A stretch of 64,000 bases of DNA from Alphaproteobacteria bacterium (GCA_024279475.1 JAJRRM010000114.1:6803-70802), one strand, 5' to 3'; numbered from the stretch's first letter, positions 1 to 52,748 are shown. The notes: generated by a model not told the origin, from the letters alone. Numbers and translations: made by a program.

Positions 1-737
1 CAAATCCCCACCTTTTTTAAAGCAAATGCATATAAATTCCATACATCTGAAGAAATGTGACTTCCATGATCATCTATGCATAAAGTTTCTCCTTTAATTT
101 TCATAGTGCAATGGCCCGCCAAATGCATTTCCTGCACTATAGATGCTGGTATACGACGAATATAATCATACGGATTAAAACTAAGATTTTTACTGCTAAC
201 AAAGACATTGTTAACATCCAGAATTAAACCGCACCCTGTTTTTTTACAAACTTCAGCTAAAAACTCTGGCTCCGCATAAGTATTTTCCTTAAAAGATAAA
301 TAGGTAGAAACGTTTTCAAGAATAATTTGCCTCCCTAAGAAATCCTGTGTTCTATCTATATTCTGACACAGCACTGTAAGAGCTTCCTCTGTATATGGTA
401 TTGGCAACAAATCATTAGTATAAACACCATCAATTTGACTCCAGCTCATATGCTCTGAAAATAAAAAAGGATTTAGCTCTTCTACTATCCCTTTGAGAAA
501 TTGTAAATGATCCTCACATACTGGCTGTGCACTGCCCAAGGAGAGACCAACACCGTGGATGCTCAGATCATAGTCATTTCTTATACATCTTAATTTATTT
601 AAAACCGTAGACCCAATGCAATTTTCCGCATGAACTTCAAAAAAATCTACCTTTGGCTTTTTTTCTAATATATCAGCTAAATGCTTAAAATTAAGCCCCA
701 CGCCAATAAGAGGCGGATTTTGAAGATTTTTAGTCAT
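1..737 (-). CDS. DUF692-family multinuclear non-heme iron oxidase (BufB/MbnB-like RiPP maturase); the 3' end runs off the left edge
   Basis: Absent from the ORF track because it is open to the window edge. My translation from ATG 737..735 reads MTKNLQNPPLIGVGLNFKHLADILEKKPKVDFFEVHAENCIGSTVLNKLRCIRNDYDLSIHGVGLSLGSAQPVCEDHLQFLKGIVE. The VDxFEVHxEN and LSxHGVGLSLGS motifs are DUF692 hallmarks. It lies 87 nt downstream of a DUF2282 gene on the same strand. Confidence 0.8.
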   Translation of the reverse strand, partial: MTKNLQNPPLIGVGLNFKHLADILEKKPKVDFFEVHAENCIGSTVLNKLRCIRNDYDLSIHGVGLSLGSAQPVCEDHLQFLKGIVEELNPFLFSEHMSWSQIDGVYTNDLLPIPYTEEALTVLCQNIDRTQDFLGRQIILENVSTYLSFKENTYAEPEFLAEVCKKTGCGLILDVNNVFVSSKNLSFNPYDYIRRIPASIVQEMHLAGHCTMKIKGETLCIDDHGSHISSDVWNLYAFALKKVGI

Positions 738-824: not shown

Positions 825-1136
825 CTAAGCAGAGTCTTTTTCTGTATTTTCAATAGTAATCTTATTAACACCCTCTTTTGGCGCTAAGTTTCCACCATTA
901 ATACGAGAACATATACCTTTAGGAAGAATCATCCATGCAGCGCGATCACCATCTATAGTAGCCGAGCCAGAGCAGCTAGTTTTTCCTCCACTAGCACAAC
1001 CATTTTGGCCAGCCTTAACTATACCATAACATTTTTCTTTTAAGTGTTTCTTGTCAGCATCTTTATCTTCATTACAGCCACTAAGCGCTGCTGTTATAGC
1101 TGCTGCAATAAATGTCTTTGATGATATTTTTTTCAT
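825..1136 (-). CDS. DUF2282 (BufA/bufferin-like) Cys-containing RiPP precursor with a lipoprotein-type signal peptide
   Basis: Signal peptide ends in the lipobox LSGC. The core EKCYGIVKAGQNGCASGGKTSCSGSATIDGDRAAWMILPKGICSRINGG has the 4-Cys DUF2282 pattern (EKCYG...C...C...PxGxC). Good SD (GGGAAGGAAGTGG) before the ATG. Confidence 0.8.
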   Translation of the reverse strand: MKKISSKTFIAAAITAALSGCNEDKDADKKHLKEKCYGIVKAGQNGCASGGKTSCSGSATIDGDRAAWMILPKGICSRINGGNLAPKEGVNKITIENTEKDSA

Positions 1137-1215: not shown

Positions 1216-1461
1216 TTAGGCCGGAAAATTAATGCGCCTTGCAATATCTTCTAAAGCTCTATCACCCATTTTTCGAATAACTTCTTCCTGATCCTTGTCT
1301 TTTGCTGCAATGTTTACAGACTCTAGATCTTTCTTAGCCTGTTCCATTTGATCTTCAATAAAAAGCTTTGCATTGCCAGATGCATGTGCTTGGTTTGCTA
1401 GAACACGCCCCAAGAGTAGTCGCATAGCAATCAATTCTCCAAAAAATTTTTCCATTTGCAA
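1216..1461 (-). CDS. hypothetical 81-aa helical protein without signal peptide, last gene of the secretin trio
   Basis: ORF lies 17 nt downstream of the secretin gene on the same strand. No recognisable motif. Confidence 0.4.
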   Translation of the reverse strand: MQMEKFFGELIAMRLLLGRVLANQAHASGNAKLFIEDQMEQAKKDLESVNIAAKDKDQEEVIRKMGDRALEDIARRINFPA

Positions 1462-1478
1462 ATCCTTTTTGTTTTTTC

Positions 1479-3455
1479 TTAAGATGCTGAGTTCGCGCTA
1501 TCATAAACTTCATCTAAGATGGCTGGTAAATCACTCCAACTTTCTACTATTGCATCCCCATTTCTAAATTCACGATATACTCCAACTTTTTGAAAATGCT
1601 TAAAAGCCTCTGAAATATTTGGATCTGGTTTAAACCAATCAGTATATCTATTTTTAAATTCAAAGAGAGCCTGAACAATTGGGGAATTTTTTGCAGCATC
1701 AGGTCCCCCAATAGCACCGACATACGTATAGTCTGGTTGACGCGGTGTTATCAAGAAGATTACAGACTTACGAGATTGAGTTGTAGTGTCTTTCTGAAAG
1801 AAATATTGCAACCCAGGTATATCACCAAGAACTGGAAAAGCACTAGTTGACTTTGAATCTGACCTCTGAGATAAACCGCCTAGAATTAATGTATCTCCAA
1901 TATTCATTTCTACCGTTGAGGTTATTTGGGTATGTCCCGAATATAAGGATTGACTAAAGTTTGATCCTGATGGAGCGCTTGAATCGTTAACAGTTTTTCT
2001 ATTTGCCTGTATATCTATCGACACCCTTCCATCACCTAAAAGAGTAGGTGTTACAATCATATTAAGACCGAGATTATAAGGCCCTGCTACGCTATTATCT
2101 CCATTACCAGAGGTAGCCACAACTATATCATTACCTGAAGAAAATGTAGCTTGTTTTCCGCTTAATGTTGTTAAAGTTGGTCTCGCTATAATTTCATTTC
2201 TCTCTCCAATAACATTTGCAATATTTAAAGAGTATGCAGTTGCATTTGATACAGTAAAAGAATTTCCTCCTGTTATCGTTTTATTTCCTGTTTGTTTGCT
2301 AATAGACTGACCCCAAGAGAATAGACCCTGAGCTGCCGCTGGGCTCTCTGACAAGGATATAGTTAAACCCTCTAAAAGATTCATCCCATAGGCCTGAGAA
2401 GATGACTCTTCTGCAATCATAATTACAAGATCAATAAGAACCATTTGGCCTTTAAAAGTAAGAGGTTTTGGCTGCGAAGCGTATGTTACTATCTCTTGCG
2501 TTACAGGACCCTTTAATAAGTCAGCAGCTACTGTAGCATTTCTATTTTTATAGGGATTCTCAATATCAGGCACCCTATAATTAGAAACCGATAAAGGAGG
2601 CTTTTTAGTTTCTTTTTTACCAGTATTTTTCTTGGAATTGATAGACTTTAGAGGTTTTTCAGAAATTTTTCCTATATCTTTTTTAGCGCTCTTTGGTACA
2701 TCTGATGCAGTATTCAAACCACTATCAATTTTAGACTGAACAACTTGGTATATATCACCCCATGTACTAATCCTGTTTTTTATATATCCTATATCTTTCG
2801 AATAGTTTCCTTTTAAAGCAACTAACCTATTCAAATACCCTTGCGATTTTTTCTTTTTATTAGCTGCAGCCATAACAATAGCTGCTGTGCGTAAATATAA
2901 AGGATTTTTTGCGTTTTTTTCCACAGCTTTTTCAATAGCACCCACCGCTACTATAAGATCATGTAGATAGTATGAGCTAACTGCCAAACCATACAGAGCT
3001 TTTGAAGATTTTGGATCCAATAAAAACGCTGCAGAAAAACTTCCTTGTGCTTGTGCATAGTTTTTTTTGTTCAATTCAACTGTTCCTTTATAGTAATGAA
3101 CAATAGAACTAGAGGGATCAAATTTTGCAGCTAATGCATAACCAACTTGTGCCATATCCAGATATTGATCATCCCCATTTCTCGCCATCAATTGATATAT
3201 ATAAGCATTAAAAAAATGAGCTAAAGAGTGTCTTGGTGCTACCTTTATCTGCATCCTAAACATTTTTGCAGCTACTTCAAGATCTCCTTTTTTTAGTTGC
3301 TTTATACCCTCTTTCATTATGGGGGACTTCAATGGATGACTTACTGAAATAGATGCCATAGAAAGTTTCTCTTGTTTCTGGGATGTCGTTTCACATCCAG
3401 CCAAAACAAAAGCAATTGAAATAGAAACCATTGATTGTCTCAAAAAGGCTTTCAT
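1479..3455 (-). CDS. outer-membrane secretin-family lipoprotein with an N-terminal TPR-like domain (pilotin-secretin-like fusion)
   Basis: Lipobox FVLAGC, then about 200 aa of TPR-like helical repeats and a K/S-rich linker. C-terminal secretin core motifs are VLIDLVIMIAEES, GDTLILGGL, FPVLGDIPGLQYFFQKD and VIFLITPR. Confidence 0.8.
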   Translation of the reverse strand: MKAFLRQSMVSISIAFVLAGCETTSQKQEKLSMASISVSHPLKSPIMKEGIKQLKKGDLEVAAKMFRMQIKVAPRHSLAHFFNAYIYQLMARNGDDQYLDMAQVGYALAAKFDPSSSIVHYYKGTVELNKKNYAQAQGSFSAAFLLDPKSSKALYGLAVSSYYLHDLIVAVGAIEKAVEKNAKNPLYLRTAAIVMAAANKKKKSQGYLNRLVALKGNYSKDIGYIKNRISTWGDIYQVVQSKIDSGLNTASDVPKSAKKDIGKISEKPLKSINSKKNTGKKETKKPPLSVSNYRVPDIENPYKNRNATVAADLLKGPVTQEIVTYASQPKPLTFKGQMVLIDLVIMIAEESSSQAYGMNLLEGLTISLSESPAAAQGLFSWGQSISKQTGNKTITGGNSFTVSNATAYSLNIANVIGERNEIIARPTLTTLSGKQATFSSGNDIVVATSGNGDNSVAGPYNLGLNMIVTPTLLGDGRVSIDIQANRKTVNDSSAPSGSNFSQSLYSGHTQITSTVEMNIGDTLILGGLSQRSDSKSTSAFPVLGDIPGLQYFFQKDTTTQSRKSVIFLITPRQPDYTYVGAIGGPDAAKNSPIVQALFEFKNRYTDWFKPDPNISEAFKHFQKVGVYREFRNGDAIVESWSDLPAILDEVYDSANSAS

Positions 3456-3457
3456 TG

Positions 3458-4420
3458 TTAATTTTTCTCCTTTGATAATAATTCTTCTAATTTAATTTTT
3501 TTTGCGGCTGAATGAACAGGTAAACTCGTGGCATTTTTCATATAATCAAGAGCCTGTCCCTTTATGTTTTGAAAAATTTTATTTTTAGAAACAAGATCCT
3601 CAAAGAATGTCTTTAAGAAAAAAGCTACTATATAGTTCGATGTATTTGCGCTAGAGAGGGCAACGATTGGTACTGTTATACTTGAAATAGTATCATTTTC
3701 CCCTTCATGAGTCTCTTCTCTATTACTAGTAATTATTTTAGTACTTTTATAATATGGATATTGTTTTTTTAGTTCTGGAGTTAATTTAATAGGTATTAGC
3801 TTATAGCCACAAGCCTCCACAAAATAATAAGCCACTGTGTTATCTGGAAGCCCTACATGGAAAATAGCATCTACTTCAGTGTTGCATGTATTATCATACC
3901 AACTTAACTGTGCCTTTCTCTCTACTAATTTTACATCATTAAATTTAAGATTATTCCCTCTTAATACTTTTTTAAAGGTATCAAAGGCTTCTCTACTAAA
4001 AATATTTACTTTTTTCCCTTTTAAATCTTGAATTTTTTCTATCTTTGAAGTAGGGCTGGCCAATAGATACGCGGTCCTTCTATAAAGCTGCGTAACAAAA
4101 TTTGTTTTTAATCTTTTCTTAACAGTAGCCATATCAAAATTCCTGTGATAAAAAGCATCAGCAGGGAGAACAATAAAACTATAGTTATTAGTAGGTTTAA
4201 GCGTATATTTTTTTTCTTCTAGACTACCATCTATAAGGACTTTGCACAAAATATTACGCTTACTAATCTTGATCATAGCACTACATATTTTTTGCAACAA
4301 ATTAAGCTCTATGGAATTAGTAGGGCTCGTTGCTATTGCTAGATCATAAGCACTAGCACCTGAATTTAGCATTATAAGAACAACAAGGGTTAAGAGAAAA
4401 CTTTTATTTTTATTCATCAC
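3458..4420 (-). CDS. secreted TAXI-family (TRAP-type) solute-binding-protein homologue, divergent, with no adjacent permease
   Basis: Has a signal peptide. It is collinear with TAXI receptors as I recall them (LKGKKV...; YPYYKS; C-terminal SLPVHSAAKK, cf. PLHPGA..YY). The N-terminal Gly-rich loop is replaced by ATSPTNSIE. The gap to the secretin gene is 2 nt. Confidence 0.55.
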   Translation of the reverse strand: MMNKNKSFLLTLVVLIMLNSGASAYDLAIATSPTNSIELNLLQKICSAMIKISKRNILCKVLIDGSLEEKKYTLKPTNNYSFIVLPADAFYHRNFDMATVKKRLKTNFVTQLYRRTAYLLASPTSKIEKIQDLKGKKVNIFSREAFDTFKKVLRGNNLKFNDVKLVERKAQLSWYDNTCNTEVDAIFHVGLPDNTVAYYFVEACGYKLIPIKLTPELKKQYPYYKSTKIITSNREETHEGENDTISSITVPIVALSSANTSNYIVAFFLKTFFEDLVSKNKIFQNIKGQALDYMKNATSLPVHSAAKKIKLEELLSKEKN

Positions 4421-4458
4421 TCTTTGGCCTTTTTAATTACTATTAATCTAATTTTTTA

Positions 4459-5379
4459 CTATTTACCAGAACTAGTAAGAGCTTTTTCTTTATCCAACGT
4501 TTTTTTCTGTACAGATCTATATCCATTTAAAACTTCTGTAAATTTTTTATCATCTCCTGGGCCCAAGCAGCCTCTAAGAAAAACACCATCTGGCCAGATA
4601 GAGTTGCAAACAGTGACCGATTCTAAAGCTTTTGCTTCAAAAAAAGAAGAACCTGTTAAATCAGCATTTTCCATAAAGACGTCTGCCATATTAGCACCCA
4701 TTAGGTTAGCCCCATTTAATGATGTCCCCAAAAATATTGCTCCAACCAATAAAGCATCTTGCATATTCACACCAGTCAACTTAGCCTTTGTGAAGTTAGC
4801 TCCTTTTAAATTTGCTTTTCGAAAGTTACTACCATTTAAAATGGCATTTTCAAAAATGGCTTCTGATAGGATAGCCTCTTCAAAGTTAGAATTTCCTAAC
4901 ACTGCTCCATAAAATGTACTATAAGGCATTTGAGCCCTATAAAAAGAAACGTTTTTTCCACTTGCTCCTGAAAAATTCATGTCAGGGCCTATAGTTTTAT
5001 CGAGTTTTGTATCTACTAGAAGTGCAAAAGAAAAATTTGTCCCATTGCACTTAGTACCTTGCATATTAACATTTTCTAAAGTTGCATATACAAAAGTAGC
5101 AGATACCAAGTTAGAGTTTGAAAAATTAATATCTTTTAATATTGCTTGAAAAAAGGAAGCCCCTTCTGCACTCCGGCCAGAAAAATTTACCCCTTCTAAA
5201 GAAAGCCCCTGAAAAAGACAATATTTGCAATCTTTCTCTGCAAGGAACCGACTTTTGCTCCCAACGGATAAAAGAGCTCCATAATAAAAGTAGTCTGGTT
5301 TTATTTCTTTCATATAACAACTACTTAAGAAAAGAAGCGAAATAAGAGCAAAGAAACTTTTTATTATTATTCTATCCAC
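4459..5379 (-). CDS. pentapeptide-repeat lipoprotein
   Basis: GTG start and lipobox LSSC. Long runs of A(N/D)LxG-type pentapeptides, e.g. ANLKGANFTKAKLTGVNMQDALLVGAIFLGTSLNGANLMGANMADVFMENADLTGSSF. Confidence 0.8.
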   Translation of the reverse strand: MDRIIIKSFFALISLLFLSSCYMKEIKPDYFYYGALLSVGSKSRFLAEKDCKYCLFQGLSLEGVNFSGRSAEGASFFQAILKDINFSNSNLVSATFVYATLENVNMQGTKCNGTNFSFALLVDTKLDKTIGPDMNFSGASGKNVSFYRAQMPYSTFYGAVLGNSNFEEAILSEAIFENAILNGSNFRKANLKGANFTKAKLTGVNMQDALLVGAIFLGTSLNGANLMGANMADVFMENADLTGSSFFEAKALESVTVCNSIWPDGVFLRGCLGPGDDKKFTEVLNGYRSVQKKTLDKEKALTSSGK

Positions 5380-5555
5380 TGTTTTTATTCTTATTTTATT
5401 AATAATACATCTTTATTGAATAGTAGTTTGCGTTTTTTAGCAAGAAAAAAAATCTCCTTTCAAGCTTTTTATTAGAAGGATTCTATGTTCTTAGATAAAC
5501 ATCCCCCTTCTAGAAAAAACCAATACCTGAAGAGTTGTTCCTTCCTTTAGCAGCG

Positions 5556-6329
<774 letters not shown>

Positions 6330-6335
6330 TTCGCC

Positions 6336-7295
6336 TCACCTTTTGTTTTTAAATTTTTTTATTAGTTTCCAAAACTCCTCTACTAAATCTATCAAAGTAT
6401 GAAAAGACTGTCTACCCATTGTTTTTGTATTGAATGAATAAATAAAACCATTTACTTCTGCATTGTATGTTTTTTCTAGAGCTTCTTTGAATGAATATTT
6501 CTTTAATATTGCCCCCATATGAAGATCATCACAGAATATTGTTCCTGTAAAATTATAGTCTTTCCTCAGTTTATTTATCAAACTTTTTGAAAATGTAGCT
6601 GGTTCATGTCCCCAGTCATCGTGGCTGATATGAGCTGTCATAACTCCTTCTACCGATGTATCTTGAATAAGCGTCTTGAATACATTCATCTCTTCTTTTT
6701 TCCACACTTTAGACGTGTCTACAAAACCGTCATGCGTGTCTCCTTGAGCTGACCCATGTCCTGGAAAATGCTTTAGGCAAGTTCCTACACCTTCTTCTTC
6801 ATGCGCTTTTATAAATGCCTTTGCATATAAAGCAACGTTCTCTTCTGTTCCATATGAACGCTTTAGACTTCCTATTATAGGTGACAGAGGCACATGCTTT
6901 GGATTTATATCAATGCACGGTGCAAAATTATAGTTAATACCAAAATAATTTAACTCTGAAGCCATTTTTCTATAGAGTTGCTTTGCGCCTTCATAGTCTA
7001 GTGTTTTTGCTACAAATTGCGGTGTAGCATAATCTGTGAAGCTATTTTTTTTGCGCAACCTTTGAACTAACCCACCTTCTTGATCCACAGTCACAAGCAG
7101 CTTGTCTGCACCGTCTTTCAAATACGTTGTAAGTTCTTTTAACTGCCTAGGATTTTCTATATTATAATCAAAGAGAATAACACCTTGAATTTTATCTTCT
7201 TGAATAAATTTTTTTACTTGCTGTACTTCTTTGTCTCCAGAAGTGGTCCCTGAAAATCCAACAACTAAAACAAGTGTGGGGAAACTTTTTGCCAT
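6336..7295 (-). CDS. nagZ: beta-N-acetylhexosaminidase, glycoside hydrolase family 3 (NagZ-like)
   Basis: GH3 N-domain motifs VDQEGGLVQRL and KHFPGHGSAQGDTHDG. Confidence 0.8.
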   Translation of the reverse strand: MAKSFPTLVLVVGFSGTTSGDKEVQQVKKFIQEDKIQGVILFDYNIENPRQLKELTTYLKDGADKLLVTVDQEGGLVQRLRKKNSFTDYATPQFVAKTLDYEGAKQLYRKMASELNYFGINYNFAPCIDINPKHVPLSPIIGSLKRSYGTEENVALYAKAFIKAHEEEGVGTCLKHFPGHGSAQGDTHDGFVDTSKVWKKEEMNVFKTLIQDTSVEGVMTAHISHDDWGHEPATFSKSLINKLRKDYNFTGTIFCDDLHMGAILKKYSFKEALEKTYNAEVNGFIYSFNTKTMGRQSFHTLIDLVEEFWKLIKKFKNKR

Positions 7296-13481: not shown

Positions 13482-15020
13482 ATGACAGCTCCCTTTCTTA
13501 ATAAAAAAAGCCCTCTTAGTCGTACGCGATCTTTTTTTTGGCCTATTCACGGATATGAAATGAAAAAATTTCTTCCTATGGCTATTATGATGTTCTTAGT
13601 TCTTTTTAACTATACAATTCTTCGCAATACAAAAGATGCTTTAATTGTGACTTTATGTGGCCCAGAGGTTATTCCTTTCTTAAAAGGTCTTCTTATTATG
13701 CCTATTTCTATCTTCTTTGTGGCACTTTATGCTAAGTGTCTTAACGTATATAAAGTTGAAACTGTTTTTTACCTTGCTATTAGCTTGTTTATTTCATTCT
13801 TTGCTTTTTTCTCTCTCTTTCTCTACCCCAATCATGAATTTTTAGAACCTTCTCCTGAAAAGATATTAGCCTTAAAAATAACCTATCCCTCTTTACAGCA
13901 TTTGATATCTGTCTATGGCAATTGGGTAGCATCTATTTTTTACATATTCTCTGAACTGTGGGGAACTCTTGTTTTAGGGCTATTATTTTGGCAGTTTGCC
14001 AACGAAATAACACGCATAGCAGAAGCCAAGCGTTTTTATCCTATGTTTGCCTTTCTAGGTCATTTTGGACTTATTGCTGCAGGACTTATTATGGTTTACT
14101 TATGCAAGTTTCAGTCAATAGGAAAACCCGGGGTAAAAATGTGCTCAAGCTATTTAAACGATATTATGTTAACAGTGATTGTAGCTTCTCTCCTCATTAT
14201 GGCTATTTATCGCTGGATGAATCTAAAAGTTTTAACAAATATACAATATTATGACGCAGCCTCTAAAGACTATAAAAAAAATTATCAAAGACCTAAGTAT
14301 TCTTTACGAGAAAGCTTTAAACACGTTATAAACTCTCCCTACATAGGCTTAATTTCTATTCTTGTTTTAGGCTATGGATTTTCTAATAATATATTAAGTC
14401 TTATTTGGAAAAAACAGATAAAACTACAGTATGATACTGTTGTGGAATATAGTCAATTCATGGCAAATTTTTCCTCTATTCTAGGGATTGTAACCGTAAT
14501 ACTTATCTATTTTTTCAAAGGCACCGTTCTTCGTTTTGGGTGGCTTAGTGGTGCTCTTGTAACGCCTATTTTTTTAGCTATTACAGGAAGTATTTTTTTC
14601 TATTTTATTTTTTTTGGCGATAAAATGTCTTCTTTTATAGCTCTGTTCATGGTTACACCTCTATTTTTTACGCTTATTATAGGAACAGTGCAGCAAGTAT
14701 TAAGTAAGTGTGCAAAATACTCTATGTTTGACCCTACAAAAGAAATGGCTTATATTCCTCTAGATCCTGACCTAAAAACCCGCGGTAAAGCAGCAGTTGA
14801 CGTAATTGGCCACACCTTCAGTAAAGCTAGTAGTGGTTATGTTGTAGGCGGACTTCTTATCCTTACTCAGGCAAGTGACTTAATGTTCATCGCCCCTTAT
14901 CTAGCTGGACTGATAGCGATTATGATTGTTGTTTGGATTTTAGCTACTCAAGCTCTCTACAAACGCTATAAAATATTATTAGCTCAAAAATCTGCTAAAG
15001 AAGAATCTTTATCCTCTTAA
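13482..15020 (+). CDS. tlc: ATP/ADP translocase (Tlc/NTT nucleotide transporter family)
   Basis: 512-aa polytopic protein. The N-terminus (FFWPIHGYEMKKFLPMAIMMFLVLFNYTILRNTKDALIV) and later motifs (FWQFANEIT, KRFYPMF, PTKEMAYIPLD) are typical of Rickettsia/Chlamydia-type nucleotide transporters. Confidence 0.9.
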   Translation: MTAPFLNKKSPLSRTRSFFWPIHGYEMKKFLPMAIMMFLVLFNYTILRNTKDALIVTLCGPEVIPFLKGLLIMPISIFFVALYAKCLNVYKVETVFYLAISLFISFFAFFSLFLYPNHEFLEPSPEKILALKITYPSLQHLISVYGNWVASIFYIFSELWGTLVLGLLFWQFANEITRIAEAKRFYPMFAFLGHFGLIAAGLIMVYLCKFQSIGKPGVKMCSSYLNDIMLTVIVASLLIMAIYRWMNLKVLTNIQYYDAASKDYKKNYQRPKYSLRESFKHVINSPYIGLISILVLGYGFSNNILSLIWKKQIKLQYDTVVEYSQFMANFSSILGIVTVILIYFFKGTVLRFGWLSGALVTPIFLAITGSIFFYFIFFGDKMSSFIALFMVTPLFFTLIIGTVQQVLSKCAKYSMFDPTKEMAYIPLDPDLKTRGKAAVDVIGHTFSKASSGYVVGGLLILTQASDLMFIAPYLAGLIAIMIVVWILATQALYKRYKILLAQKSAKEESLSS

Positions 15021-18999: not shown

Positions 19000-19375
19000 T
19001 ACTACTTAACACCTATTTCTGCCAGCGCATTTATGAGGGGCTTCTGTTGCCCGGCCCCCTCAAACCGCGCATCGGGATATACCCAATGACTTATGCTGCA
19101 GCAGCAACTCTTCGGAATAAACCCTCAGAGTTGTCATTAACAGCAGAAGCAAGGATAACGACATTGTCGTTAGCCACTGCTAGTTTTTTTCTTTCGACAT
19201 TTATAGTGTCTAGTCCGATATCGGTGGTACCATGCCGAGCGAAAACAATATCTTTACTACACATGTCGAGCCTATTTCATCCCCAGTATTTTATTGGTGG
19301 AGATGCCGGGTACCGCCCCCGGGTCCATAATGCTTATTCCATACGAAATTTATCGCCATAGTAAGACTTACACCC
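19000..19375 (-). ncRNA. ssrA: two-piece (circularly permuted) tmRNA; outer ends approximate
   Basis: On the minus strand the T-arm is CCGGG-GGCGGUA-CCCGG, then acceptor strand CAUCUCC, discriminator A and CCA (terminal A at 19295). A 10-nt spacer follows, then GGGGAUGAAAUAGGCUCGAC (19284 downward). The acceptor stem forms with G3:U70. The tag ORF at 19174..19091 reads ANDNVVILASAVNDNSEGLFRRVAAAA*. This is the most GC-rich non-coding island in the window. Confidence 0.85.
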
Positions 19376-19607
19376 TACATATATATATATAGTATAAAAT
19401 ACTACAAATTTAAAGGGGCAATGCTAAAAAATATGATACATTACTCCTCTTATGGATGGATTTCTCTATTTTTTACTATCCTCTACAGAGATTTGCTCTA
19501 TATTAGCACTAAGTAACAACAAAAACCCTTAAATTCATTTTCTATCTTGGCTTTTCCTCTAAAAAACATTAAAACTACGAAAACTAGGTTAAAAAACAGG
19601 ACAAAAA

Positions 19608-51920: not shown

Positions 51921-52748
51921 TTATACAGCATCCTTCACTCGCTGATTAACCTTTGATAGGCCCAAAGCTGTTATAAGAGTTCTTAATTCTTGCCTTGCAG
52001 CAACATGGGATAAATTAAGTTTTTTCTCTCCCACCTCTGTTAAATCTAATAATGTTAAACCTTGCATAAATAATTCTCTAAAAATAACACGTTCAGAAAA
52101 TCCAGGGACATGTTTGAATCCTATCCTTTTTTCTAGTTTCCCCAACACTTCTTCCATATACTCTTTATTTTTTGCATTCAACTGGCTTAAGCGGTTACGT
52201 AAAACAATCCAATTCATATTGCCACGATTACGCAGAGCTTTATTTTTTTTAAATTCCCATACATTCTCAGCATAAATACTTAGACGATTAACATTAAGCG
52301 TTCCATTTTCAATATGAGCTAATAGGTCTAAATCTATAAAGCTATCATTAAGCGGCGTTATAAGTGTGTCTGCAAAAGAATGCGCAAATCTTGAAAGATA
52401 TGTATTACCACCTGGTGTATCTACAACAACATAGTCACACCCCTTCAATTTTTCCATTGCTTCAGAAAAACTAGATTCTTCTTCTTTATTTGCCTCATCA
52501 ACACTTTTATTCTCGCTCAGATAGACCGGATTATGAGAAGGCGTTAATAGCTTAACTTTATTGTCCTTTATATATTTATCTCTATTTTCAAGATATCGCG
52601 TTAAAGTACCTTGCCTTGCATCCACGTCAATACTACCTACATTGTGCCCTGCATGCAGTAGGCTTGCTATAATATGCACAGCTACAGTAGACTTTCCTGT
52701 TCCGCCTTTTTCATTCCCAAGAACAATAACGTAAGGCTGAGAAATCAT
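51921..52748 (-). CDS. mipZ: division-plane positioning ATPase MipZ (ParA/MinD superfamily)
   Basis: VIVLGNEKGGTGKSTVAVHI..SLL..G..VGSIDVDARQGTLTRYLENR matches the MipZ N-terminus as I recall it. Confidence 0.8.
   Translation of the reverse strand: MISQPYVIVLGNEKGGTGKSTVAVHIIASLLHAGHNVGSIDVDARQGTLTRYLENRDKYIKDNKVKLLTPSHNPVYLSENKSVDEANKEEESSFSEAMEKLKGCDYVVVDTPGGNTYLSRFAHSFADTLITPLNDSFIDLDLLAHIENGTLNVNRLSIYAENVWEFKKNKALRNRGNMNWIVLRNRLSQLNAKNKEYMEEVLGKLEKRIGFKHVPGFSERVIFRELFMQGLTLLDLTEVGEKKLNLSHVAARQELRTLITALGLSKVNQRVKDAV

Follow-up and report, generated by a model that had tools for sequence, protein, structure and literature searches.

The window analysed here is a stretch of 64,000 nucleotides (nt) from an Alphaproteobacteria bacterium (GCA_024279475.1 JAJRRM010000114.1:6803-70802). 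Near its start, on the minus strand, lie three closely packed genes encoding a 320-aa TAXI-like protein (3458-4420), a 658-aa secretin lipoprotein with tetratricopeptide repeats (TPR-secretin; 1479-3455) and a small, clade-specific helical protein without a signal peptide (1216-1455). Secretins form the outer-membrane part of type II and type III secretion systems (T2SS and T3SS), of type IV pili (T4P) and Tad pili, and of filamentous phage, where an inner-membrane motor pushes something through the secretin gate. The TPR-secretin gene was recognized as an open reading frame (ORF) and assigned by Pfam, a HMMER-defined family, an AlphaFold2 (AF2) model and Foldseek. An earlier reading of the same DNA, made from the sequence only (the sequence-only reading), had described the three minus-strand ORFs, which lie where it placed them, with 2 nt between the TAXI-like and secretin genes. 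Its gap of 17 nt between the secretin gene and the small gene holds for a TTG start at 1461, which would give 81 aa as it proposed, but the ATG at 1455 is the likelier start because an exact NCBI protein and both orthologues have 79 aa; the gap then becomes 23 nt and the protein is 79 aa long.

Comparison across a large family shows that the conserved cassette consists of a TAXI-like protein, a TPR-secretin and an exported pentapeptide-repeat protein. In the window, the last of these is a lipoprotein (lipobox LSSC) encoded immediately upstream on the minus strand (4459-5379; Pfam Pentapeptide, 7e-38). The trio originally proposed as a unit is therefore partly redrawn: the TAXI-like protein and the secretin are indeed conserved together, whereas the 79-aa gene is restricted to a three-member clade and the pentapeptide lipoprotein is the conserved third partner.

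Domain architecture of the TPR-secretin

The 658-aa protein starts with a lipobox, L-A-G-C (aa 18-21; 3393-3404, minus strand, as for all the segments that follow), in which Cys21 is the predicted acylation site. A TPR solenoid of ~12 helices follows (aa 45-246; 2718-3323), modelled by AF2 with a predicted local distance difference test score (pLDDT) of 87-96, and then a disordered linker rich in Lys and Ser (aa 247-333; 2457-2717; pLDDT <50). The secretin beta-domain (aa 338-572; 1740-2444) is delimited by Pfam, by a PDB profile search and by the AF2 strands, and is succeeded by a family-specific C-terminal extension (aa 573-658; 1482-1739) that carries a YREFRxGD motif and has conserved columns up to aa 634. 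The AF2 model was built on a 40-sequence family alignment, and the helices that it places in the C-terminal tail have low confidence. The Pfam Secretin model (PF00263) matches aa 419-572 at 5e-31 (107.9 bits against a cutoff of 27.5 bits), and the N-terminal part is matched by TPR_2, TPR_16 and TPR_17. Neither Secretin_N, STN nor the Tad N-domain was found by Pfam in the protein at E<=0.1, and before aa 338 the AF2 model consists of TPR helices and disordered linker only. The sequence-only reading had proposed a TPR region, a Lys/Ser-rich linker and a secretin core without N0/N1 domains; the Pfam calls and the AF2 model confirm this layout, and the lipobox and secretin motifs that it quoted are all present.

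The secretin core resembles those of all secretin classes, with comparable sequence similarity to GspD, PilQ and RcpA. In Foldseek searches the beta-domain matches GspD, InvG, PilQ, RcpA and pIV at 1e-17 to 1e-13, with secretins of all classes at about 1e-16, and a PDB profile search with the core finds GspD, PilQ and RcpA at 5e-15 to 1e-11. The NCBIfam models for PilQ, GspD, HofQ, MshL and SctC match the C-terminal core only, far under their cutoffs. The first matches of the window secretin outside its own family are Tad-type secretins.

The N-terminal part has the features of a pilotin, that is, of an outer-membrane lipoprotein with ~5-6 TPRs, in that sequence and model give a LAGC lipobox followed by a solenoid at aa 45-246. 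The PilW model TIGR02521 aligns from the lipobox onward (aa 11-213) at 6e-9, with 35.7 bits against a cutoff of 154 bits. In Foldseek searches the solenoid matches PilF (2ho1) with a TMt of 0.65 and consensus TPRs with 0.59. A profile of the family N-domain searched against the PDB finds a consensus TPR at 2e-26 and PilF at 8e-4, ranked behind many unrelated TPR proteins; BcsC is also among the TPR matches. The pilotin-secretin fusion suggested by the sequence-only reading is thus plausible by analogy but shows no specific homology, as PilF stands at the level of generic TPR proteins. Specific fusion with a PilF/PilW pilotin was considered and is kept as an analogy only, since PilF scores no better than generic TPR proteins and PilW lies under its cutoff.

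Family extent and conserved neighbours

Word-indexed homology searches, with the single protein or with a 40-member profile, return a three-member clade only, in which the two nearest relatives of the 658-aa protein are 63-65% identical to it. The wider family is visible in an exhaustive HMMER search with a clade profile, which finds 412 representative clusters at E<=1e-30. The top 150 clusters are mostly 580-700 aa long and match the TPR part, the secretin part and the C-terminal extension. A scan of species-representative genomes with a 10-sequence query gives 334 relatives confirmed by tblastn. The description of the window secretin as an orphan was therefore mistaken at the level of the family. 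The best 80 of these 334 loci, on which the neighbourhood analysis is based, belong to Alpha-, Beta-, Gamma- and Deltaproteobacteria, with a small number of further phyla represented, and the bacteria that carry them are mostly free-living; family taxa include Thalassospira, Terasakiella, Glaciecola punicea, Colwellia, Herminiimonas, Paucimonas lemoignei, Rhodoferax and Gallionellaceae. The family is without a model in NCBIfam, and the few members that carry a name in their source are called 'hypothetical protein'.

The architecture is maintained over this range. Members only 24-33% identical to the window protein keep the lipobox Cys, the TPR residues, the secretin core and the YREFRxGD tail motif. 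Among 40 diverse members, a Secretin domain is found in 40, TPRs in 34 and an N0/N1-type domain in none. In the 40-member alignment the conservation of Cys21 reaches 90% or more; the lipobox is present in most alpha- and gammaproteobacterial members and absent from the clade whose neighbours carry a Jacalin domain. The linker varies in length and is poorly conserved. A near-identical C-terminal tip, ...RLxxALxFL[YF][YF]-COOH, ends 67 of 87 family secretins (loci L005-L084 plus the window), and could be a ligand of the TPR groove or a beta-signal for the beta-barrel assembly machinery (BAM). The window secretin keeps all family-invariant residues and ends in ...DSANSAS; this FLYY tip is missing from the window clade and from most members with Tectonin-repeat neighbours, and is kept by the sister of the window clade, L072. 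L072 is a Hyphomicrobiales metagenome-assembled genome with the same order of pentapeptide, TAXI and secretin genes.

To survey the partners, ORFs were called in all loci, clustered and rescanned with profile hidden Markov models, and counts were limited to the 71 family secretins flanked on either side by 1.5 kb or more. In 63 of these 71 the adjacent gene encodes a partner that could be recognised, in most cases in the same orientation (about 61/69 if the duplicate contigs L002 and L004 are removed). Adjacent genes encode both pentapeptide and TAXI proteins in 15 cases, a pentapeptide protein only in nine and a TAXI protein only in five; 17 secretins adjoin Tectonin-repeat proteins (~850 aa, in many cases flanking the secretin on both sides, with an AraC regulator in addition), 13 a ~950-aa protein that ends in a Jacalin domain, and four have mixed partners, leaving eight with no recognised neighbour. 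Pfam assigns the family partners to NMT1_3 (1e-41 to 1e-45, full length), Pentapeptide (1e-53 to 1e-58), Tectonin and Jacalin. The type of partner tracks the secretin tree, the derived Tectonin and Jacalin clades each being monophyletic, while the pentapeptide/TAXI state is widespread, commonest and paraphyletic. Signal peptides or lipoboxes, together with conserved Cys pairs, mark the partners as extracytoplasmic; by sequence, this applies to all cassette components save the 79-aa protein. No domain shared among the pentapeptide, TAXI, Tectonin, Jacalin-type and 79-aa families was found with hhalign (all probabilities <1%).

TAXI homologues adjoin the secretin in about 25 family loci, and in six unrelated loci the TAXI stop and the secretin start overlap as ATGA, where the window has its 2-nt gap. 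The window protein (320 aa, with a Sec signal) matches Pfam NMT1_3 at 1e-10 (41.8 bits against a 27-bit cutoff) and TIGR02122 at 5e-16 (58.3 bits, under the cutoff of 84.35 bits), and solved TAXI proteins in the PDB align to aa 45-311 at 6e-9. The earlier assignment to this group holds on all three counts, and from these profile matches the protein is predicted to have a TAXI fold. Two Gly-rich motifs, LGTASxxGxYxPVG and NIGNxGSGxR, which we take to be the TAXI ligand site, are present in TAXI proteins of the family outside the window clade. In the window clade the first motif is lost and the second has a 5-aa deletion, while all four conserved Cys are kept. A TAXI-type fused TRAP membrane component occurs nowhere in the window and is not conserved in the family loci. 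The degenerate ligand loop and the missing TRAP permease of the sequence-only reading are thus both borne out. Taken with the lost FLYY tip, the degenerate TAXI sequence marks the window cassette as a derived version.

Outside the window clade, exported pentapeptide orthologues, which are beta-helix proteins of ~30 kDa, adjoin the secretin in about 30 loci. They form a specific subfamily of exported proteins, marked by an N-cap CxxC(D)LRY, a C-cap C.A.MPDG...C and either a signal peptide or a lipobox. The 79-aa protein has a far narrower distribution: only three such proteins were found among 5.8 billion, and there is no match in 80 distant family loci. Its AF2 model is a low-confidence three-helix bundle (pLDDT 66).

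Genes for a secretion motor are rare around these secretins. No T2SS, T4P or Tad genes were found within the window by Pfam on ORFs or by a six-frame motif scan, and the scan detects neither a secretion-ATPase Walker A motif nor a prepilin leader there, in agreement with the motor-free 64 kb of the sequence-only reading. In 85 family loci (1.48 Mb) there are no prepilin leaders and a GspE/TadA-type Walker A occurs once. This single ATPase-bearing locus, L053, has a Tad-like cluster (3613-6672) just downstream of the TPR-secretin, with a CpaF-like GGTGSGKTT Walker A; the cluster is separate and has a secretin of its own (a weak second secretin hit). The sequence-only reading had named orthologues inside Tad, T4P or T2SS operons as an outcome that would speak against it. 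They do not sit there, since just 1/85 loci lies near a secretion ATPase, that of the L053 Tad cluster, so that the reading stands on this point. The TPR-secretin lacks the N-domains and the operon context that are features of T2SS, T4P, Tad and T3SS secretins.

Some further genes recur near part of the loci, none of them universally conserved. Proteins of cyclic-nucleotide or cyclic di-GMP signalling are often found close to pentapeptide/TAXI-type cassettes (L013, L009, L038, L042, L010, L012, L030, L026, L037, L018, L019); by domains read by eye, they are PAS-GGDEF-EAL proteins, CHASE2 or HAMP adenylate cyclases and permeases that bind cyclic nucleotide monophosphates. An MFS protein together with an ABC_sub_bind protein (both confirmed by Pfam) neighbours 4-7 pentapeptide/TAXI-type loci.

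Gene string and bufferin cluster in the window clade

In the two closest relatives the gene order is YhdP, GH3, poly-Asp, pentapeptide, TAXI, TPR-secretin, 79 aa, BufA, BufB, BufC (DUF2063), DoxX and a hybrid histidine kinase, and in all three clade members the string is co-oriented with short gaps. In the window, a BufA1/DUF2282 bufferin precursor with a Sec signal (825-1136, minus strand; lipobox LSGC; Pfam DUF2282, 2e-20; orthologues labelled BufA1) follows the 79-aa gene, and is itself followed by BufB, an MNIO (DUF692) of the MbnB/TglH/ChrH family, of which the N-terminal 245 aa are present before the gene runs off the window (3-737, minus strand; PF05114, 6e-86). BufC (HvfC_N/DUF2063) and DoxX come next in the orthologous loci, so that the cluster has the composition of a bufferin (Buf1) cluster for RiPPs (peptides synthesized by ribosomes and modified after translation). 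It lies directly downstream of the cassette throughout the clade (L001, 12344-14785; L003, 11445-13855), with the hybrid histidine kinase beyond it. The sequence-only reading had correctly noted the small gene downstream of the secretin, but the bufferin cluster next to it had gone unnoticed. Bufferins are periplasmic copper-binding RiPPs exported by Sec (PMC11626156), and a survey of MNIOs records lipoprotein signals in about 16% of Buf2 bufferins. BufA of the window clade would be a lipidated Buf1 bufferin, since a lipobox is present in all three members (LSGC, LSSC and LASC). Secretins, TAXI proteins and outer-membrane components find no mention in the bufferin/MNIO papers PMC11626156 and PMC12452194. 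Two Thalassospira loci also have bufA and bufB, ~6 kb upstream of an AraC-Tectonin-secretin-Tectonin cassette (L071, 3104-4402; L083, 1960-3159), while three others have no buf genes by the cassette (L047, L064 and L067); this co-location is probably due to chance.

The bufA cluster is probably co-transcribed with the cassette. No terminator-like site was found on the minus strand from 4420 to 1, in scans for promoters and terminators whose results are at background level. The string has just two sizeable intergenic gaps, of 79 nt before bufA (1137-1215) and of 176 nt before the pentapeptide gene (5380-5555). Both are AT-rich and likely to be the sites of internal or cassette promoters, and neither contains a convincing match to a sigma-70 promoter or a terminator. 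No regulatory RNA was found near the cassette with Rfam.

Between the GH3 and pentapeptide genes lies a gene for a poly-Asp secreted protein (5556-6329, minus strand). The N-domain of the protein is rich in Cys and is accompanied by very long tracts of poly-Asp and of Ser-rich sequence; the protein is conserved in the window clade only. The GAT repeats of its gene give rise to spurious ORFs of considerable length, both on the opposite strand and in other frames (5510-5968, 5578-6402 and 5711-6094). It had been proposed, together with the pentapeptide lipoprotein, as a possible cargo. The pentapeptide lipoprotein stands as a conserved neighbour, but the poly-Asp protein is clade-specific.

The cassette ORFs are all intact in three diverged genomes. 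Across these genomes the secretin is 64% identical, the GH3 protein 59-61%, and the TAXI and pentapeptide proteins 36-43%. Nominal ratios of nonsynonymous to synonymous substitution rates (dN/dS), which are rough because dS is saturated (above 1), are 0.07-0.16 for the secretin, 0.17-0.47 for the TAXI protein, 0.11-0.47 for the pentapeptide protein and ~0.1-0.15 for the 79-aa protein; in the clade comparison the nominal value is 0.16 for the secretin against 0.18-0.19 for GH3.

Every ORF of at least 110 aa in the window either received a Pfam assignment or has no match, and the remaining genes are housekeeping: YhdP, a NagZ-like GH3, SodB, a TLC ATP/ADP translocase, the dcw cluster, ATP synthase genes, MipZ and others. 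The GC content of the host is about 35%. An alpha-type permuted transfer-messenger RNA (19032-19418, minus strand), the TLC ATP/ADP translocase (13482-15020, plus strand) and MipZ (51921-52748, minus strand) together point to the host being an intracellular, energy-parasitic alphaproteobacterium. Retention of the cassette in such a reduced genome suggests that it has a function there.

Possible functions of the cassette

Several known systems share individual traits with the TPR-secretin. In the Tad system, TadD is a lipoprotein of five TPRs with a PilF-like fold, whose groove binds the last four residues of the secretin RcpA, a contact that is essential for assembly (PMC10499894). RcpA-TadD (PDB 8ODN; PMC10499894) resembles the present family in combining a secretin core with a TPR lipoprotein, and the family also has a conserved C-terminal tip. 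Here, however, the TPRs and the secretin are parts of one polypeptide, the VirB9-like Tad N-domain (PF13629) is absent, no genes for CpaF/TadA, TadB/C, a Flp pilin or a prepilin peptidase occur nearby, and in the window clade the tip is missing. The PilQ-PilF/PilW/Tgl and GspD-pilotin systems are alike in the fold of the beta-domain (Foldseek, ~1e-16), in the PilW alignment (6e-9) and in the structural match to PilF (TMt 0.65), and self-piloting liposecretins are alike in that the lipid anchor is on the secretin itself. In contrast to the PilQ and GspD systems, the family has no AMIN, N0, N1 or N3 domains and its genes lie outside pil/gsp operons. The exopolysaccharide exporters BcsC, PgaA, PelB and AlgK/AlgE also pair a periplasmic TPR scaffold with an outer-membrane channel and use no dedicated outer-membrane ATPase, but their channel is a monomeric beta-barrel porin, they are synthase-dependent and they are encoded beside glycosyltransferase or synthase genes. 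The TAXI-like protein shares the NMT1_3/TIGR02122 fold family with TAXI-TRAP binding proteins (PDB 8S4J and 1US4) over aa 45-311; unlike them, it is coupled to a secretin, has no adjacent fused membrane component and, in the window clade, lacks both Gly-rich motifs.

The sole precedent found for a pentapeptide-repeat protein tied to a secretin is the slime nozzle of Arthrospira, where PilQ occurs with the ~30-kDa protein NIES39_A07680 (PMC12475490). The nozzle differs in having a canonical PilQ of a T4P/T2SS-type system and no reported TAXI or TPR component, and the pentapeptide proteins of the two systems are likened by description. No description of a motor-less TPR-secretin family was found in the literature searched, including a survey of the superfamily of type IV filaments (TFF) that documents how repeatedly secretins have been co-opted (PMC6668835), and none was found of a linkage between secretins and TAXI, pentapeptide, Tectonin or Jacalin proteins. 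The view of the sequence-only reading that no described system fits is upheld.

The reading preferred here, with a probability of roughly 0.45, is that the TPR-secretins are a self-piloting, stand-alone family that serves neighbouring secreted partners by the following putative mechanism. In place of the N0-N3 domains, which normally couple secretins to a motor, these proteins would have a TPR solenoid that is anchored by a lipid and carried on a linker both long and flexible. Anchor and TPRs would do the work of pilotin and docking platform in cis, as a built-in module, for which TadD offers a precedent, and the FLYY tip is a candidate contact of the TPR groove, within or between subunits, by analogy with RcpA-TadD. 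The secretin core is expected to form a gated multimeric pore in the outer membrane, as do secretins in general (SDS-resistant 12-15-mers), and the neighbouring secreted repeat or lectin-like protein would be its dedicated client, delivered to the cell surface or the medium. The neighbours are most economically seen as clients because they belong to three unrelated families of ~260 to >2000 aa, are sometimes multicopy, and are beta-repeat or lectin-like. The TAXI-fold protein may be a periplasmic adaptor or gate-keeper and not a solute receptor; a pure receptor role is unlikely because of the translational coupling to the secretin and the loss of the loops in the window clade. Transport could, speculatively, be driven without an ATPase, by binding or by folding of the client's beta-repeats outside the cell. 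In the window clade the cassette has gained the 79-aa gene and lies head-to-tail with the bufferin cluster. A more far-reaching form of the proposal, in which the family is a new motor-independent secretin pathway, and in effect a new type of secretion system, that exports or displays beta-repeat or lectin-like proteins (pentapeptide beta-helices, Tectonin propellers and proteins with a terminal Jacalin domain), needs no type IV filament, needle or phage and has TAXI co-opted as an adaptor, is less likely but has a real chance of holding.

A number of points weigh against the self-piloting, client-serving family. No secretin gate is known to open in the absence of a piston, a filament or a needle, nor was a source of energy for transport found. 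The evidence for client status consists of adjacency and of the extracytoplasmic, lectin-like or repeat nature of the neighbours, in neighbourhoods that stem from our own ORF calls on the best 80 of 334 loci. Several pentapeptide partners, including that of the window, are lipoproteins and might stay anchored in the periplasm. A motor encoded elsewhere in the genome is conceivable, since the inventory covered the window and the family loci, and the function in the window clade may have drifted, since the C-terminal tip and the TAXI loops are lost there. The Arthrospira precedent, too, favours a structural role for the pentapeptide protein over one as cargo (PMC12475490).

This last point leads to the main rival explanation, itself unlikely, in which the pentapeptide and TAXI proteins are structural or regulatory subunits, forming a periplasmic ring that replaces the N-domains, and the substrate is an exopolymer, a small molecule or DNA. 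The pentapeptide protein of Arthrospira and the PilQ nozzle co-purify, and a model places the protein in the nozzle as its lower ring (PMC12475490). Subunits of this kind would agree with the translational coupling of TAXI and secretin genes, with the narrow size range, conserved caps and frequent lipidation signals of the pentapeptide partners, and with the retention of the TAXI scaffold in the window clade after its ligand loops were lost. The exchange of three unrelated partner families across clades, with sizes from 260 to >2000 aa and sometimes 2-3 copies, is more client-like, however; no domain is shared among these families by hhalign, and no polysaccharide synthase or glycosyltransferase is found among the recurrent neighbour clusters, the larger of which were annotated. 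A link specific to the window clade, whereby the cassette would export or surface-display lipidated BufA and so convert a copper buffer of the periplasm into one that is secreted or sits at the surface, is improbable. The co-oriented string from the pentapeptide gene to the hybrid kinase, with short gaps in three clade members and no terminator-like site, would fit such a link, as would the lipobox of all three BufA proteins and the buf genes ~6 kb upstream in two Thalassospira loci. Yet sister L072 and >70 other loci have no nearby buf genes, bufferins are described as periplasmic and in need of no outer-membrane exporter, and the lipoprotein signals of ~16% of Buf2 bufferins occur without a secretin context. 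The adjacency is best counted as a single evolutionary event, because it is confined to one clade with a wholly syntenic neighbourhood, and the link is rated low for that reason.

Uptake, with TAXI capturing a solute that enters through the secretin, has somewhat poorer prospects still. In its favour, TAXI proteins act as solute receptors, both Gly-rich motifs are retained by members outside the window clade, and MFS or TRAP genes lie near some loci, but no inner-membrane permease is conserved with the cassette, two large secretin clades are entirely without a TAXI gene and the window protein lacks the ligand loops; nor do we know of secretins that act as solute uptake channels. As a family function, the uptake pore of a host-dependent bacterium that the sequence-only reading had entertained is unlikely, given that members are mostly free-living and that the window TAXI loops are lost. 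Very little likelihood attaches to the view that the protein is simply an orphan secretin working for a T2SS, T4P or Tad machine with genes elsewhere in the genome. The comparable similarity of the core to GspD, PilQ and RcpA, the position of L053 beside a Tad cluster and an inventory limited to the window and the loci leave some room for it; against it stand the absence of a coupling domain (for GspC, PilP or the platform) in 40 of 40 members, the consistent linkage to partners of the family's own instead of TFF genes, the separate secretin of the L053 Tad cluster and the persistence of the family in a reduced intracellular genome. Equally slight is the chance that the window cassette is a decaying relic without present function in an endosymbiont lineage. 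The loss of the FLYY tip and the TAXI ligand loops and the fast evolution of the pentapeptide protein and the TAXI protein (36-43% identical, where the secretin is 64%) are what decay would produce, but the ORFs are intact in three diverged genomes, all family-invariant residues are kept, and the secretin is more conserved than the housekeeping GH3 both in identity (64% against 59-61%) and in nominal dN/dS (0.16 against 0.18-0.19).

The family may be an unrecognised route across the outer membrane. A family of hundreds that has shed the motor-coupling domains would imply either a novel means of opening a secretin or a novel purpose for one, and it provides a first genomic context for three groups that are poorly understood, exported pentapeptide-repeat proteins, orphan TAXI binding proteins and bacterial Tectonin and Jacalin proteins. 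The question is directly testable because some members come from bacteria that can be cultured, among them Thalassospira (T. profundimaris WP0211 has the Tectonin type), Glaciecola punicea (ACAM 611, with the TAXI and pentapeptide type), and Paucimonas lemoignei and Herminiimonas (Jacalin type). At four loci the TPR-secretin gene is duplicated in tandem, in the arrangement TAXI-secretin-secretin-pentapeptide (L017, L021, L025 and L036), which suggests hetero-oligomeric or specialised paralogous channels.

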